Positions 20,984-26,213 of a DNA stretch of 64,000 nucleotides are shown in pieces. The notes under the pieces were generated by a model, which saw only the letters and a list, made by a program, of their open reading frames with translations, was not told the DNA's origin and made no database searches. Within the stretch, counting starts at the first letter, position 1; each line of letters begins with the position of its first letter. Both the position numbers and the translations under genes were made by a program. Origin of the DNA: Thermoplasmatales archaeon (GTDB lineage: Archaea > Thermoplasmatota > Thermoplasmata > Thermoplasmatales > Thermoplasmataceae); assembly GCA_027310185.1 (NCBI GenBank), contig DAIDBH010000006.1:128001-192000 (forward strand). Direction: 5' to 3'.

Positions 20984-23362
20984 CTATCCCTCCATGAAAC
21001 TATCAAGTGTAGTGTTCTTGCTGTTGCGGACTGCCTGTGGTTTTTTTCCTGACCTAGATGCCTGTTCAACGAGATGTATTGGCTCGTCGAGACTCTCAAA
21101 CACCCGGTTTACGGTTTCTTCAACTCTTTTTGCGTAATAAAGCCAGTCCGGTTCATCCTCAAATTTCTCTCCATCAATATATGGCTCTACTTCCTGCGGT
21201 GTCACCCTGCTATTCGTGACTATCCATGAGACCTTCATTCCTGGAATGAATCTCTCACCTCTTTCCTGTAACTTTCTTGCAGCCCTTACGTTTGCCATGG
21301 AATCAGCGTTTGCATAGGAGGCAGAATCTTTTACCGATCTAGAAATAACAAGTTTAGAAATATCGATGGTACTGTCTCCACGGATGAGCCTTTCTATAAT
21401 GTCAACTGCATTTTCTCTTGCTCCTGATACGTCTTTGTTCATCAGCGAATCGAATACAGATTGTAGCAGTTCACTCTGCATATCAAAGGAATCAGTTCTC
21501 CTTACCTCGTATCCCCTCACAAGCATTTCTCCAGCACTATCCATTGGATAGACTATCTTTCCCACATATCTTTTCTTTGCTCCATGGGAGAAGAATGGGT
21601 CCATGATCTTCTCAAACTCTATAAGAATGTGAAGATCATCAGAAATTTCCCTGCTCAGATCATTTCCCATCTTAATTGCTTCACTGAGTTCTTTTTTTCC
21701 TGATTCAATGAATACGCTATCAGTATCACCGTATATCACTTTCAGGTCCTTCTTCTTCAGCTTATCTATGAGACCCATGATCGTGTTTCTTGCGAAGGAC
21801 GTGACGGAACTTCCAAGTTCAGGATTTGTGAATCTGTAGAATGATGAAGCGAGTACACCATAAAAGGTATTCATAAGTATTTTTATTGCGTTCTGTACAC
21901 CATCCAGGTAATCCCTTTCATCGCCCTTAGCCTGCTTCATCAGCTTTTTGACCTGATCTCTCCTGTCCATCAACGTCTGCAGCAATTCTGGAATCAACCC
22001 TTTCCTTACAGACGGATCCAGAAACCTTGCGCCTGTAGGCGAAATTATGGTTCCATTTTCACTGAGTGTTGTGAAACATATATTGTATTTCATAATTATG
22101 GACGGATACATGCTCTTGAAGTCAAGCACTATTACCATGTCATATAATCCTGCACCAATGGATTCCACATGCCCGCCTTCTATGGCCCTGTCCTTCAGCG
22201 CCTGACTTGCAGTCATTGGAACTGCTATATTTCTCTGTGTTGCCAGCCTTATGAGCAGTGAATCTACATAATTACTTGTCCCCCCATTTGTTGTATCCTC
22301 CAGTGGAAGTTTCGTTACAGTGGACATGAACATATTTCTATCCACGACCCGCATTTTTTCCATGATTCTCAGTGTCAGATCAGCATCCTTAATGCAGTAA
22401 TCAATCACCTCCTTCGGCCTGTTTTTATATTCTTCCATGATGTTGAGCCTGTCAACGTCATCCTTTCCTTCATTCAGGAGTTCCATTGCGACGTAATTAA
22501 GTGTTTCATGTTTTGGTTTCAGGATCTTCTTCACATTCCACCAAACATCGCTGATTATCCTTCCCTTAACCCTCCAGAACTGGCCATTGATCCTCCTTGC
22601 CTTTGTTCCATCCCTTCCTATATCAAGTGTGAGGCCGTATCTTTCCATCCTGTATTCAATTACAGGTAGATCGTAACCATCAATGTTGTATCCTATGATG
22701 ATATCCGGATCTTTTTCCAGTACAAGCTTATTAAAATTTGATAGAATCTCCTTCTCTTCCCCAGTAATGGCACCTTTCTCTGGTTCTACCCCTTTCCTGC
22801 TTCTTATGGAATATCCTATTACTATGATCTTACCGAATGTATCTCCTTCATCGGGAGGGAATGCATTTTCTATATCAAAACTGAGCACCCTTACATCAGG
22901 TGTGAAATCGTCCGTTGTCTTTATGCTCTTGATATCGGATCTTAATACCATGTCTGTATGATATCTATTCCTGTCAATGACCTCCTCACCTTCAACCTCA
23001 ACACATGCACCAAGATCAAGATCATAGATGAATCTGTGATGGAATGGTATATCTGCAGCCATTACCGTTGAAACAAACAGGGAACGTAATTCCGGCACTT
23101 TATATGGATGATTGACATAAATTCTTATTGCTTTCCTTGTCTCCCCCTTGACCCATAATTCAAGTTCCTCCATTCTCTTAAATTCAGGATTTTTCTTGAT
23201 TCCTTCTATTTCCTGCTCTTTTGGTTCTATAACGTCAAAATATGGATCAAAACCGCCACACAGGACCGTTACTGATGAGCCGTCAGCTGTCCTCCCAAAA
23301 ATCTCCACAACCGTATCTGAAGTCCTGTATGAGGATGAAATTATTCTAAGGCTTATTTTCAT
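20984..23362 (-). CDS. polB: Family B DNA polymerase
   Basis: Exonuclease SFDIE, GYNIDGYD and YCIKDA; polymerase DFKSMYPS, K...NTFYG, YGDTDS and KKRY. No intein. Confidence 0.97.
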   Translation of the reverse strand: MKISLRIISSSYRTSDTVVEIFGRTADGSSVTVLCGGFDPYFDVIEPKEQEIEGIKKNPEFKRMEELELWVKGETRKAIRIYVNHPYKVPELRSLFVSTVMAADIPFHHRFIYDLDLGACVEVEGEEVIDRNRYHTDMVLRSDIKSIKTTDDFTPDVRVLSFDIENAFPPDEGDTFGKIIVIGYSIRSRKGVEPEKGAITGEEKEILSNFNKLVLEKDPDIIIGYNIDGYDLPVIEYRMERYGLTLDIGRDGTKARRINGQFWRVKGRIISDVWWNVKKILKPKHETLNYVAMELLNEGKDDVDRLNIMEEYKNRPKEVIDYCIKDADLTLRIMEKMRVVDRNMFMSTVTKLPLEDTTNGGTSNYVDSLLIRLATQRNIAVPMTASQALKDRAIEGGHVESIGAGLYDMVIVLDFKSMYPSIIMKYNICFTTLSENGTIISPTGARFLDPSVRKGLIPELLQTLMDRRDQVKKLMKQAKGDERDYLDGVQNAIKILMNTFYGVLASSFYRFTNPELGSSVTSFARNTIMGLIDKLKKKDLKVIYGDTDSVFIESGKKELSEAIKMGNDLSREISDDLHILIEFEKIMDPFFSHGAKKRYVGKIVYPMDSAGEMLVRGYEVRRTDSFDMQSELLQSVFDSLMNKDVSGARENAVDIIERLIRGDSTIDISKLVISRSVKDSASYANADSMANVRAARKLQERGERFIPGMKVSWIVTNSRVTPQEVEPYIDGEKFEDEPDWLYYAKRVEETVNRVFESLDEPIHLVEQASRSGKKPQAVRNSKNTTLDSFMEG

Positions 23363-23533
23363 CTGTTAAATATGCATATCCGGCTTAAAACAATATCCAT
23401 TATTTCGAATTGTGAACTTTATGGGATGAAAGAAATCTTATCCTTCCTTATTCCATGAACAAATTCCAGGATTGGCATGTACTGAGATTCAATTATAAAA
23501 ACAAAACGCTTTAATAATTTGAGAAAATTTACT

Positions 23534-23619
23534 CATGTTCAGGGGAGCCATTGGCTGAGAGGATCAGAAGATCGACCCTTTGAACCTGACCCGGGTAATT
23601 CCGGCGGAGGGAGAAGATG
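23534..23619 (+). promoter_or_regulatory. TPP (THI-box) riboswitch
   Basis: GGGGAGCC-ATT-GGCTGAGAGG...ACCCTTTGAACCTGA-CCGGGTAATTCCGG-CGGAGGGA matches the TPP aptamer consensus. Imperfect P1 CATGTTC/GAAGATG; TTTAATAA TATA-like box at 23510-23517; upstream of an MFS gene. Confidence 0.93.
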
Positions 23620-23694
23620 GATATAATATACGGCATCGTAAAAAGGAGTTTGTTTGTTACAGGTCTAAAATGCGGAGGTTTTCTGTATGAATAA
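23617..23694 (+). CDS. Putative 25-aa uORF (MDIIYGIVKRSLFVTGLKCGGFLYE) starting inside the TPP aptamer
   Basis: GGAGG (23606-23610) 6 nt before ATG 23617; its end overlaps the MFS start (ATGAATAA). Confidence 0.45.
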   Translation: MDIIYGIVKRSLFVTGLKCGGFLYE

Positions 23695-24916
23695 ATACAG
23701 ATCATCCCTCCTTGCCTCAACGTCCTTTGCATTTATTTTCTGGGGGATAGTTGGTACAATAGGACCGCTTGCTGCATCTGGATCAATAATCGGAAATCTA
23801 AATCACACGGGAAAGCTCATATTTCTCTTGATAGGGCCACTGGTTGTACCAGCAGGCAATCTTTCCATGGGATTTCTTGCTGATGCCATAGGTAGAAAAA
23901 AGGTTTTTCTAATTACAATGTCATTTTATACCATTGGAATTATTGTTATAAGTCTGAGCTACACCTTCATTCCCTTGCTGCTCGGCCTAATACTTGCGGA
24001 ATTTGGAGTTGGTGGTGAAGAACCATCCTCGCTTTCACTGGTGGCTGAAAATACAGATGCAGATAAGAGGCCATTCTGGCTGACGATCCTTACCAATATG
24101 GACAATATCGGCAGCGCCCTAATGGCTGGACTATTTTTCATAGTGGTTAATGATCTGCAGGACAGGGCTGTTCTCCTGATTGGTTCCCTGTTACTGATTT
24201 TGTTTATAGTTGCACTCAGGAGAGTGATCCCGGAATCCCAGATGTGGCTGAAAGAATCGGGTAATACTGATGAATACAGAAAGGAGAGGGAGAAAATAGA
24301 ATTGAGGGATGATGGTGAAAGGATTTCCCAGCCAAGCCTCCTTCCATCCTTCATTTTTCTTGGCGTAATAGCTGTATCTCAGTATCTCACATTCGGCCTA
24401 ATGGCTTACGTTCTTGCCCCCATAGAATTTCCAAATAGCTCTGAAGATGATCTGATCATTTTTGTAGCACTTCTGGGTTCTTCTGTGGCAGGTTTCATTG
24501 CGGCTCCACTTATTTCAAGGGGAAGAAAGAACTATACACTACTTTCTTTCCTGTTTGGCACAGTTACAATGGTTGCAATATTCATAATGGTCCCATACTT
24601 GCAGAACATGGTTATATTTCTTCCACTACTTTTTGCAAACATGTTCATGAGTGAATTTGCCTATGCTTCAAGATCCGTTCTTGAACCTGAACTTTATGGC
24701 ACAAGAAACAGATCAGCACTTATAGGATTAACCAGGTTATGGCCCATGATAGCTTACCCAATATTCACCTTTTACACAAGCAGCCTGAATCTTTATAACT
24801 TTTTGCTCATCAATGTGATACTCTGGGCACTGGGATTGTCTGCGTCTGTTTACTGGTTCTATTTTGGAATTGAGACAAAAAATGCAAACATAGATTATAT
24901 GCCCAGAACCACCTGA
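23687..24916 (+). CDS. MFS transporter, probably for thiamine or a thiamine precursor
   Basis: G.LADAIGRKK motif A, GVGGE, ~12 TM; downstream of a TPP riboswitch; own SD GGAGGT at 23674-23679. Confidence 0.88.
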   Translation: MNKYRSSLLASTSFAFIFWGIVGTIGPLAASGSIIGNLNHTGKLIFLLIGPLVVPAGNLSMGFLADAIGRKKVFLITMSFYTIGIIVISLSYTFIPLLLGLILAEFGVGGEEPSSLSLVAENTDADKRPFWLTILTNMDNIGSALMAGLFFIVVNDLQDRAVLLIGSLLLILFIVALRRVIPESQMWLKESGNTDEYRKEREKIELRDDGERISQPSLLPSFIFLGVIAVSQYLTFGLMAYVLAPIEFPNSSEDDLIIFVALLGSSVAGFIAAPLISRGRKNYTLLSFLFGTVTMVAIFIMVPYLQNMVIFLPLLFANMFMSEFAYASRSVLEPELYGTRNRSALIGLTRLWPMIAYPIFTFYTSSLNLYNFLLINVILWALGLSASVYWFYFGIETKNANIDYMPRTT

Positions 24917-25043
24917 TCTTATCCTTCCTTTGAAATCAAATATCATGAAGGAAATTTCTACTTTTTAAATATTTCATATTTAATAAGTGAAAACAATCCA
25001 AATTTTATAATAACCGCTTGCTAATTACCATAGGGGAGAATTA

Positions 25044-26213
25044 ATGGCATCGATCGTAGAAATGGTAGACAATTATGGGAGGTACAGGAGGGATGTCCTG
25101 AATCTTCAGGCATCAGAGAATTTTCTCTGCTCTCACGTGAAGATGGCATTGGGAACTGATCTCGGTGGAAGATATTCCCACGTTATGCCGGATGGCAGAA
25201 ATGCCTATGGCGGAACAGAGATGATAGAGAACATTTTCAATGAAACAGAGAAAAACATCAAAACACTATATGGTTCCAAGTTTGCCGAAATAAGGCCGTT
25301 GGGTGGTCATATTGCAGCAGAGATCAGTTTACTGAGCACAATTCAAAAGAACGACACAATAATGGCAATAAGTGAGGAGTTTGGTGGATACACAGGATAC
25401 ATGGAAAACTATCTTCCAGCCATGCTTGGCTTCAAAACAGAATTCATTCCTTACATTGAGGAAAAACAGGAAATTGATTACGATTCGTTTGAAAAGAAGG
25501 CCATGGAGATTAAACCGAAGGCAGTTGTTCTTGGCCAGTCTTTCTTTGTAAAGCATTATGATCTTGCGAGAATAAGGGAAATATGCGATAAAGCGGGATC
25601 AAAACTTCTTTATGATGGTTCCCACATCATGGGACTGATTGCTGGAAAGAAATTCCAGCCAGACGCACTGAAATATTCAGACATTTTATTCGGTTCAACA
25701 CACAAGACATTCTTCGGTCCTCAAGGTGGGATAGTACTTACCAACAATGAGGAACTGGCAGGAAAGATCGGTGAAAATGTTGTGTGGAAAACAATGGATA
25801 ACTATCACCCGAACAGGATTGCAGGCCTTGGTATTGCTGCACAGGACCTTATAACATTCGGAGAGAGTTATGCAGGATGGATTGTTTCAAACACCTATAC
25901 TCTTGCCAGAACACTCAACGATTCAGGCATAGCCATAAAATATGCTCCGTGGTATTCTGAAAGTCACCAGATAATTCTCTCTAAGGATAATTTCCAGAAA
26001 TATGGTGATTTCAGAACAATAAGCAAAAACCTTGAGAATAACAGAATAATAGCAGATACGGAAGGAAGGCTAGGAATGGCTGAAATAACAAGAATGGGAC
26101 TTACAGATATGGTTACACTTGGAGAGATAGTCGCCGATGCCATAAAGGGAAAGGACACGAGAAGCAGGATCACTGAGGTCCTGAGAAATTCCAGCATAAA
26201 ATTTTGCAGGTGA
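25044..26213 (+). CDS. glyA: Serine hydroxymethyltransferase (archaeal type)
   Basis: LNLQASEN, YDGSH..GLIAG and GSTHKTFFGPQGG (PLP Lys) motifs. Confidence 0.92.
   Translation: MASIVEMVDNYGRYRRDVLNLQASENFLCSHVKMALGTDLGGRYSHVMPDGRNAYGGTEMIENIFNETEKNIKTLYGSKFAEIRPLGGHIAAEISLLSTIQKNDTIMAISEEFGGYTGYMENYLPAMLGFKTEFIPYIEEKQEIDYDSFEKKAMEIKPKAVVLGQSFFVKHYDLARIREICDKAGSKLLYDGSHIMGLIAGKKFQPDALKYSDILFGSTHKTFFGPQGGIVLTNNEELAGKIGENVVWKTMDNYHPNRIAGLGIAAQDLITFGESYAGWIVSNTYTLARTLNDSGIAIKYAPWYSESHQIILSKDNFQKYGDFRTISKNLENNRIIADTEGRLGMAEITRMGLTDMVTLGEIVADAIKGKDTRSRITEVLRNSSIKFCR

Follow-up and report, generated by a model that had tools for sequence, protein, structure and literature searches.

To our knowledge, the mode of action of archaeal riboswitches is largely uncharted. 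The first report of THI elements in Thermoplasma is said to be that of Rodionov et al. in JBC in 2002. TPP riboswitches have been mentioned ahead of multi-transmembrane proteins of Thermoplasma and Ferroplasma; in acid-mine archaea they are transcribed together with the downstream transporter; the accessible text of that report proposes no mechanism (bioRxiv 10.1101/538918). A literature search, outside which most subscription journals lay, returned no paper on how the TPP switches of Thermoplasmatales control expression.

Fungal TPP riboswitches steer alternative splicing, and retained upstream ORFs (uORFs) repress the main ORF. In thiamine-related genes of fungi the TPP aptamer and uORFs both act in control (PMC5882874, PMC3597705). 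Nearer to the present case is the B12 riboswitch of Mycobacterium tuberculosis ppe2, which masks the start of a leader ORF, uPPE2; the two ORFs overlap in AUGA, and PPE2 depends on uPPE2 translation, mainly through termination-reinitiation (Kipkorir et al. 2024, PMC11260477). For Haloferax and Escherichia coli, termination-reinitiation between overlapping ORFs is an established process that depends on an overlap or a very short distance (2019, PMC6728339; 2023, PMC10666635). A preliminary description of the locus treated here had claimed that no archaeal riboswitch acting through a uORF was known. In the same literature search no archaeal riboswitch working via a leader ORF and no prokaryotic TPP case came to light, the TPP-plus-uORF papers that were found being, as far as their available text goes, fungal or plant. 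Within the reach of that search the claim of novelty would stand for Archaea and for the TPP class, but not for the relay from riboswitch through uORF to reinitiation as such, which has been shown in M. tuberculosis (PMC11260477).

The locus lies in what we call the window, that is, the whole stretch of 64,000 nucleotides of Thermoplasmatales DNA that was analysed. Its features are as follows.

23493-23500 and 23510-23517, forward strand: TATA-like boxes TTATAAAA and TTTAATAA, candidate archaeal promoter of the leader, read from the sequence
23531-23629, forward strand: TPP riboswitch aptamer RF00059, 70.8 bits, full model
23606-23610, forward strand: Shine-Dalgarno (SD) sequence GGAGG of the leader ORF, inside the aptamer, 6 nt 5' of the upstream AUG (uAUG), from the sequence and the Rfam alignment
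23617-23694, forward strand: leader ORF (uORF) of 25 codons plus TAA, peptide MDIIYGIVKRSLFVTGLKCGGFLYE, from ORF reading
23674-23679, forward strand: second SD, GGAGGT, 7-8 nt before the MFS ATG and within the 3' end of the leader ORF, from the sequence
23674-23711, forward strand: predicted RBS hairpin, from a single-sequence fold and a consensus fold of five kin
23687-24916, forward strand: MFS transporter, 409 aa, Pfam MFS_1 with E 2.6e-20, also Sugar_tr

Like ppe2/uPPE2, the window locus would be an OFF switch acting on translation, and the element it first controls would be a short leader ORF, out of frame with the main gene, whose stop overlaps the main start (PMC11260477). Dependence of the main gene on leader translation would likewise be shared; here comparison between loci suggests it, while the mycobacterial case is proven by reporters (PMC11260477). 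The differences begin with host and ligand, a bacterium and B12 in the one, an archaeon and TPP in the other (PMC11260477). ppe2 hides its uORF start with an anti-TIR hairpin that is not part of the ligand core (PMC11260477), whereas in the window the leader SD is itself a strand of P4 and the AUG closes P1, which leaves no separate platform. Again, ppe2 has no obvious SD of its own according to the accessible text, whereas the window MFS possesses a strong SD that seems to be enclosed in a hairpin, and the junction is AUGA in ppe2 as against an overlap of 8 nt here (PMC11260477). Absence of a main-gene SD is known from ppe2 alone, the one case described in the literature available.

Overlapping gene pairs of Haloferax also have stop-start overlaps (ATGA, TGATG) and an SD inside the upstream ORF, and their need for short distances agrees with how closely leader stops gather around main starts in the survey below (PMC6728339, PMC10666635). 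Those pairs, however, consist of two protein-coding genes, often for subunits of one complex (PMC6728339, PMC10666635), whereas the upstream ORF in the window is a non-conserved leader, seemingly serving only as a riboswitch-gated entry site for ribosomes; moreover, many of the leader/main overlaps in the surveyed order are longer than 4 nt. Unlike the fungal combination of TPP aptamer and uORF, the window locus involves no splicing, and its leader ORF is proposed to activate by coupling.

The preliminary description had recognised a TPP riboswitch at this position. A cmscan search agrees, RF00059 matching at 23531-23629 (+) with 70.8 bits against a gathering score of 54.3 (E 6.3e-12) and the alignment spanning the full model, positions 1-105. 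No other Rfam family exceeds its threshold in the 64-kb window, and an RF00059 search of the whole 1.88-Mb genome gave the same match as the sole TPP match. The cmscan alignment includes all the core stretches, CUGAGA (which we take to be J3-2 in junction naming), ACCUGA and CG.AGGGA, as well as the helices P1-P5, its posterior marks being 9 or an asterisk throughout. The aptamer is real and complete.

How the leader start is built into this aptamer can be read from the Rfam alignment. P1 consists of UGUUC 23536-40 paired with GAAGA 23613-17, so that P1 ends with the A of AUG 23617, while the 3' strand of P4 is GAGG 23607-10, the last four bases of GGAGG 23606-23610; the preliminary description had put the SD in the 3' strand of the aptamer and the AUG inside P1. 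P1 is also extendable, since U23618 can form a pair with A23535 and G23619 one with C23534 (that is, 23534-36 with 23617-19), and the extended helix takes in all three start-codon bases in the window locus (L001) and in its kin L021, L026 and L028. To judge by position, with the SD in P4 and the AUG in extended P1, masking in the ligand-bound fold would fall on the start site of the leader ORF. In the wider set of loci surveyed below, pairing of the start bases is confined to 6 out of 50 leader-ORF loci and 5 out of 73 direct ones, the AUG elsewhere lying mostly just 3' of P1, figures that depend on a simple P1 register that works for the window's clade and is probably off by at least one base in many other loci.

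Both SD sequences suit the source genome, whose 16S rRNA ends at its 3' side in ...GATCACCTCCT, matching GGAGG. Among its 945 long ORFs, SD-like 4-5-mers are concentrated 5-9 nt ahead of the ATG, each of these positions having 15-27 occurrences as compared with 0-8 at others, and such a word is present in 137 of the ORFs; the aptamer GGAGG, 6 nt from the uAUG, has the spacing of these SD-led genes, and the GGAGG of the MFS stands 8 nt ahead of its ATG. The ORF opened there is, as had been claimed, a 25-codon uORF and not the transporter, and all the positions previously given proved correct. It ends across the MFS start: ATG 23687 lies 70 nt 3' of the uAUG in the +1 frame, and the leader stop UAA 23692-94 sits 5 nt inside the MFS ORF. 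With the MFS ORF beginning 70 nt downstream in that frame, the junction reads ATGAATAA, an 8-nt overlap. None of the NCBIfam models reached its cut-off against the MFS protein. The MFS family is common to at least 90 TPP-aptamer loci of the order, an association that points to thiamine-related cargo, and thiamine or a precursor is the presumed substrate here. In annotation the transporters seem to start about 70 nt past the aptamer because the short leader ORFs intervene.

The GGAGGT at 23674-79 complements the 16S 3' end and received an SD score of 6 in a scoring blind to the leader ORF. It is predicted to be folded. In the hairpin 23674-23711 the GGAGG of the MFS SD pairs with CCUCC 23707-11, within the coding sequence, and an inner stem (UCUGUAU 23682-88 with AUACAGA 23695-701) holds the MFS AUG. 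The consensus fold of five kin has 13 pairs, four of them with compensatory changes, at -10.8 kcal/mol; pairing extends to 89% of its cells and drops to 42-71% once the partners are shifted by 1-3 columns, and its covariation score was reached in 3 of 500 shuffles. The unpaired probability of the MFS RBS is 0.28 compared with a median of 0.48 for the 137 SD-led genes of the source genome, about 11% of which are as folded. Across the leader-ORF loci the main RBS has an unpaired probability of 0.34 against 0.43 for coding-sequence controls, being lower in 30 of 44. These folding predictions moderately support an MFS start site that would be closed by default. That good SD might allow some initiation on the MFS independently of the riboswitch. 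Both this SD and the hairpin had escaped the preliminary description.

We consider it fairly probable that TPP gates initiation at the leader ORF and that the transporter is translationally coupled to it, through termination-reinitiation, opening of the RBS hairpin or both. The locus would then be a TPP riboswitch of OFF type that works on translation, lacks an expression platform of its own and acts directly on the 25-codon leader ORF rather than on the transporter. Without TPP the 3' half of the aptamer would be open, and ribosomes would bind GGAGG 23606-10 and initiate at AUG 23617. Reading the leader, they would melt the hairpin 23674-23711 and free the SD and AUG of the MFS, before terminating at UAA 23692-94, 5 nt into the MFS ORF. 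Initiation at AUG 23687, aided by GGAGGU 23674-79, would fall to the ribosome that has just terminated or to a new subunit binding the site thus opened. With TPP bound, P4 and P1 would close over the leader SD and AUG, the leader would go unread, the MFS start would stay folded and no transporter would be made. Reinitiation and hairpin opening may contribute singly or together, and an RNA-level polarity effect may be added to them. From the arrangement as a whole we infer the ligand-dependent occlusion, the dependence of the MFS on leader translation and the sign of regulation.

The comparison that bears on this reading comes from the order as a whole. Across 151 genomes drawn from this order RF00059 matched 149 times, in 112 of the genomes, and every match was fetched with its flanks; in the genus of the window the aptamer is kept in all 13 other sampled genomes. 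The largest class, the 73 loci of direct architecture, has the core CGGAGGGA and, 1-14 nt later, a start codon that opens a long transporter ORF. In 51 loci of leader-ORF architecture the core CGGAGGGA and the start are as in the direct class and the ORF is short. A further 23 loci are of platform type, each having a stretch of conserved sequence downstream and an ATG at a distance of about 40 nt, and the remaining two are cut off by contig ends. CGGAGG is read in all 126 type-A cores (73 direct, 51 leader-ORF and the two cut off), while 20 of the 23 platform-type cores lack GGAGG, having another base there, and three, from genus g9, read CGGAGG / GGAGGAA. Loci with a leader ORF thus make up about 40% of type-A loci with a long ORF (51/124).

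The direct loci share with the window the aptamer, the CGGAGGGA core, the start codon 1-14 nt on and the MFS family. In them, however, the aptamer AUG is the transporter's own start, whereas in the window a leader of 25 codons (12-42 elsewhere) comes first and the transporter has a second SD and ATG as its start where the leader stops. Since 73 loci start a transporter there, the aptamer AUG can be taken as a working, riboswitch-gated start that needs no further platform.

Where the leader ORFs end was assessed with the main starts of the 51 loci picked by the best SD match in the long-ORF frame, blind to the leader ORF. Relative to the initial base of the main start codon, the leader stop lies between 3 nt upstream and 23 nt downstream in 44 of them, compared with 10.4 such coincidences expected from 2000 shuffles of each spacer. 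When each 75%-identity leader cluster is represented once, the result is 29 of 32 against 6.2 expected, with a Poisson-binomial P of ~1e-21 that overstates independence because the loci, and the clusters, share ancestry. A leader stop placed on the main start this often supports coupling, being the signature expected of it. The 44 loci belong to 42 genomes and 11 genera and their leader ORFs run from 12 to 42 codons. What the sequences show outright is the aptamer, where both SDs and both starts lie, the overlap and, over these 11 genera, the conservation of the open leader frame and of its end point.

The leader frame is stop-free from uAUG to main start in 43 of the 51 loci; the other two frames are so in 5 and 6. 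The leader sequences have diverged far enough for unselected frames to have closed. This bears on whether the leader ORF might be a neutral remnant, the MFS being translated from its own SD and riboswitch regulation having been lost or become weak. The strength and good spacing of the MFS SD would suit a remnant, as would an RBS hairpin that is only moderately stable (-10.8 kcal/mol in the consensus fold). In-frame stops would then be expected, yet the leader frame is closed in 8 of 51 loci while the others are closed in 46 and 45; 25 codons have been held at 56% base divergence, and a 70.8-bit aptamer kept in all 13 other congeneric genomes argues for continued use. We regard a remnant as quite unlikely.

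The junctions of the 44 loci are diverse: six are ATGA, nine TAATG or TGATG and one TAGATG, and 28 are overlaps of 7-26 nt. Canonical 4-nt or 1-nt overlaps accordingly make up only 15 of the 44, and the window's own overlap measures 8 nt. An SD-like word of at least four bases is present at 36 of the 44 main starts. The leader peptides are unrelated among the 32 clusters; frame, length and overlap are what is conserved. Seven of the 51 loci failed the blind test, namely L018, L089 and five of genus g3. On inspection L018 and L089 were judged to have misassigned starts (GTGA in the one, a GTG 10 nt before the stop in the other), while in the g3 loci the leader ORF ends 20-22 nt before the first in-frame ATG or depends on a GTG, several of them having ACG in place of the ATG of their kin. 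Judged by eye and by N-terminus homology, the SD-based choice misplaced the main start in L018, L089, L030, L130 and L146; the figure of 44 out of 51 is the blind count.

Close relatives allow the leader ORF of the window to be followed codon by codon. In a FastTree phylogeny of 95 MFS proteins, from which the first 30 residues had been removed, the window MFS groups with L026, L021, L028 and L015 with a support of 99, and all five have leader ORFs. Those of L021, L026 and L028 are of 25 codons with the same ATGAATAA junction, and that of L015 has 23 codons and ends in ATGA; the length of the uORF and its stop-start overlap, whose conservation the preliminary description had proposed to check, are thus retained at 23-25 codons in all four. 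The sequence between start and stop has moved considerably. The leader ORFs of L001 and L021 differ at 16 of 78 bases, with 3 synonymous and 9 non-synonymous codon changes, compared with 8 synonymous and 1 non-synonymous in MFS codons 4-29. Between L001 and L028 44 of the 78 bases differ (2 synonymous and 19 non-synonymous changes, against 11 and 4 in MFS codons 4-29), and still the 25 codons and the stop position are kept. As the changes in leader codons are mostly non-synonymous, the peptide would appear unselected, selection acting rather on an open frame whose length is fixed and whose stop falls on the MFS start.

These relatives also speak to the possibility that the window copy is simply a frameshift error or pseudogene, its real MFS start being the aptamer AUG, or that the leader encodes a functional micropeptide. 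Direct-type relatives do have about 16 extra N-terminal residues before a conserved WG motif, the median number of codons ahead of it being 35 in the direct type and 19 otherwise, and leader ORFs may derive from such N-terminal extensions by frameshift. However, the 25-codon frame and ATGAATAA recur in three other genomes, with the 23-codon ATGA version in a fifth, the MFS ATG is preceded by its own SD, and an RNA contig shows 0 differences across the junction. The fixed 25-codon frame in kin rules out a frameshift error in the window copy and argues against a micropeptide, as do leader peptides that are unrelated across 32 clusters and changes between close kin that are mostly non-synonymous. 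We consider explanations of this kind extremely improbable. Nor do orthologous MFS proteins start at the aptamer AUG, an outcome the preliminary description had named as fatal to its reading: within the window's clade they start at the downstream ATG. That the aptamer SD and AUG open a leader ORF instead of the transporter is thus supported as a conserved design, as opposed to a frameshift in one copy.

On the tree of 95 proteins at least 4-7 changes between the direct and the leader-ORF state occur inside this one MFS family. The interchange implies that the leader ORF must transmit the same OFF logic as direct control, and because direct control can only be OFF, the sign of regulation at the leader-ORF loci is taken to be OFF as well. 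The opposite sign would follow if translation of the leader ORF repressed the MFS, ribosomes occluding the overlapping start, so that TPP would turn expression ON. Repressive overlapping uORFs do exist, that of M. tuberculosis metE suppressing MetE (PMC11260477), and the MFS SD is indeed located within the leader ORF. Yet related MFS genes are gated directly, where only OFF is possible, and a flip of sign at each interchange is unlikely; the folded MFS RBS, too, fits activation through unwinding. Occlusion therefore seems to us very unlikely.

Transcript evidence comes from a metatranscriptome read as assembled contigs, so that the gaps at 23352-23548 and 24786-25039 carry no weight. One RNA contig of 1237 nt covers 23549-24785 with 0 differences, running unbroken from mid-aptamer through the leader ORF into most of the MFS. 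As an exact match it indicates that the continuous RNA exists and that the junction sequence of the window is no assembly error. Next to none of the window's sequence words were found in the RNA runs X3-X5. The RNA contig begins at 23549, giving the MFS mRNA a leader of at least 138 nt, and RNA contigs of neighbouring genes end in adaptor letters near their start codons, the genes being nearly leaderless by appearance.

These data touch on an output at the level of RNA, in which TPP, by blocking leader translation, would leave the leader and the 5' part of the coding region free of ribosomes, to be terminated in the manner of FttA/aCPSF1 or degraded, coupling being secondary. This was the second branch of the preliminary description and could act jointly with coupling. 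A conserved open leader frame would be equally expected if its role were to keep ribosomes on the nascent RNA, and an untranslated stretch of the kind would be unusual here, given nearly leaderless neighbours and a leader of at least 138 nt. On the other hand, polarity needs neither the precise placement of leader stops (44/51) nor an SD before the main start, and the RNA contig 23549-24785 is unbroken, although contigs cannot reveal minor truncated species. The U-rich tract TTTGTTTGTT, which the preliminary description had pointed out within the leader ORF, is present at 23649-58, but a sequence comparison found it absent from the kin L021, L026 and L028. As it had also stated, there is no terminator hairpin: none was found in 23380-25100, where shuffles average 1.7. 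With no terminator-like hairpin in that stretch and no leader residues conserved between clusters, nothing points to attenuation of the trp type. Polarity as the main output is rather improbable in our estimation. Of the two branches first proposed, comparison favours coupling (44 of 51 loci and 11 genera, against 10.4 expected), and termination is left unsupported.

Coupling through the leader ORF may then extend well beyond the window. We lean, if only slightly, towards regarding 44 or more loci, spread over 42 genomes and 11 genera, as two-step relays in which the aptamer itself is the RBS of a throw-away leader ORF and only those ribosomes that finish this ORF start the transporter, direct and relay forms having switched at least 4-7 times. 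That the logic of ppe2/uPPE2 recurs here, newly in Archaea and in the TPP class, with the RBS built into the aptamer, the second SD in a hairpin and the whole a recurrent, lineage-wide design, is well supported by comparison. If true, it would be the first natural relay from riboswitch to uORF in Archaea and the first for the TPP class, and the mycobacterial B12-switch relay, as far as its published account describes it (PMC11260477), would not be a one-off. It might also tie the state of a riboswitch to archaeal transcription-translation coupling through polarity of the FttA type. Paired direct and relay versions of one gene family would be usable for studying the distance rules of reinitiation, the unfolding of an RBS and possibly polarity.

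Upstream of the aptamer, both TATA-like stretches are retained in L021, L026 and L028. They are candidates for the promoter of the leader, and either box within 23493-23517 could be the one used.

Among MFS proteins of the direct class, in which the aptamer AUG starts the transporter itself, a median of 35 codons separates that AUG from the conserved WG motif. Leader-ORF-class proteins, whose loci carry a short ORF at the aptamer AUG, reach the motif a median of 19 codons after their own start and some 45 codon-equivalents after the aptamer AUG. These distances fit a derivation of leader ORFs from N-terminal extensions by frameshift, or the reverse change by fusion. A related MFS in a congener of the window's organism (locus L065; genome G070, genus g1) seemingly lacks a leader ORF and starts at a GTG 7 nt past the aptamer core. 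In the MFS protein tree it lies on a long branch adjoining the window's leader-ORF clade, and its leader ORF may have been lost recently.

Variation is also seen at the junction of leader and transporter. Six loci of genus g3 (L079, L130, L135, L142, L143 and L146) have ACG, 4 nt before the leader stop, at the position that the main ATG occupies in their kin (L126, L134, L009, L039, L098 and L099). A correctly spaced SD-like GGTG persists, and the next in-frame ATG is found 20 nt past the leader stop. Translation may begin here at a non-canonical codon or at an upstream GTG, or the relay, the proposed coupling, may have loosened.

Near the start of the leader ORF, within its initial 25 nt, six loci of genus g15 (L016, L050, L089, L095, L096 and L108) carry TTCTTC at codons 5-7. 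This is complementary to the GAAGAA of the 3' strand of P1, the aptamer closing helix, directly before the AUG. Pairing of the two could form an alternative hairpin that rivals P1 and displays the AUG in its loop.

Two further loci, L010 (G150) and L088 (G138), are identical in leader ORF and in transporter, with a branch length of 0 in the MFS tree, despite the assignment of their genomes to separate genera (g1 and g14, respectively). Such identity across two genera points to mis-binning of a contig or to transfer in the very recent past.

The order also holds a second TPP riboswitch architecture, separate from the aptamer-AUG types. This platform type comprises 23 loci: L048, L063, L067, L078, L083, L093, L097, L100, L101, L103, L105, L107, L114, L115, L123, L127, L128, L132, L133, L136, L139, L140 and L148. 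GGAGG is absent from the aptamer core in 20 of them, the core being mostly CGAAGGAA; 3' of it comes a conserved CTTCTCTGGCAGGAG-like stretch and then an ATG about 40 nt downstream. The layout looks like the classical anti-SD/SD platform. The ORF from this ATG encodes a protein of about 378 aa that belongs to another family (cluster 1 of our protein clustering). In family f3, proteins of this cluster's family are controlled directly through the aptamer AUG.

In the window, the RNA contigs of the genes flanking the MFS locus stop in sequencing-adaptor letters (23341-23351 and 25040-25066) near these start codons:

23362, minus strand, ATG of the family-B DNA polymerase gene, a neighbour of the MFS locus
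25044, ATG of the SHMT-like gene, a neighbour of the MFS locus

RNA contigs cannot prove transcript ends, but these hint at transcripts with little or no leader for the two neighbours, in contrast to the MFS mRNA, whose leader in the RNA contigs is at least 138 nt. Two TATA-like boxes, TTATAAAA and TTTAATAA, are found upstream of the aptamer (23493-23517); L021, L026 and L028 retain the pair. Archaeal transcripts start at a usual spacing from the TATA box; given this spacing, a start directed by the first box would fall about 10 nt before P1, and one directed by the second would fall within P1.
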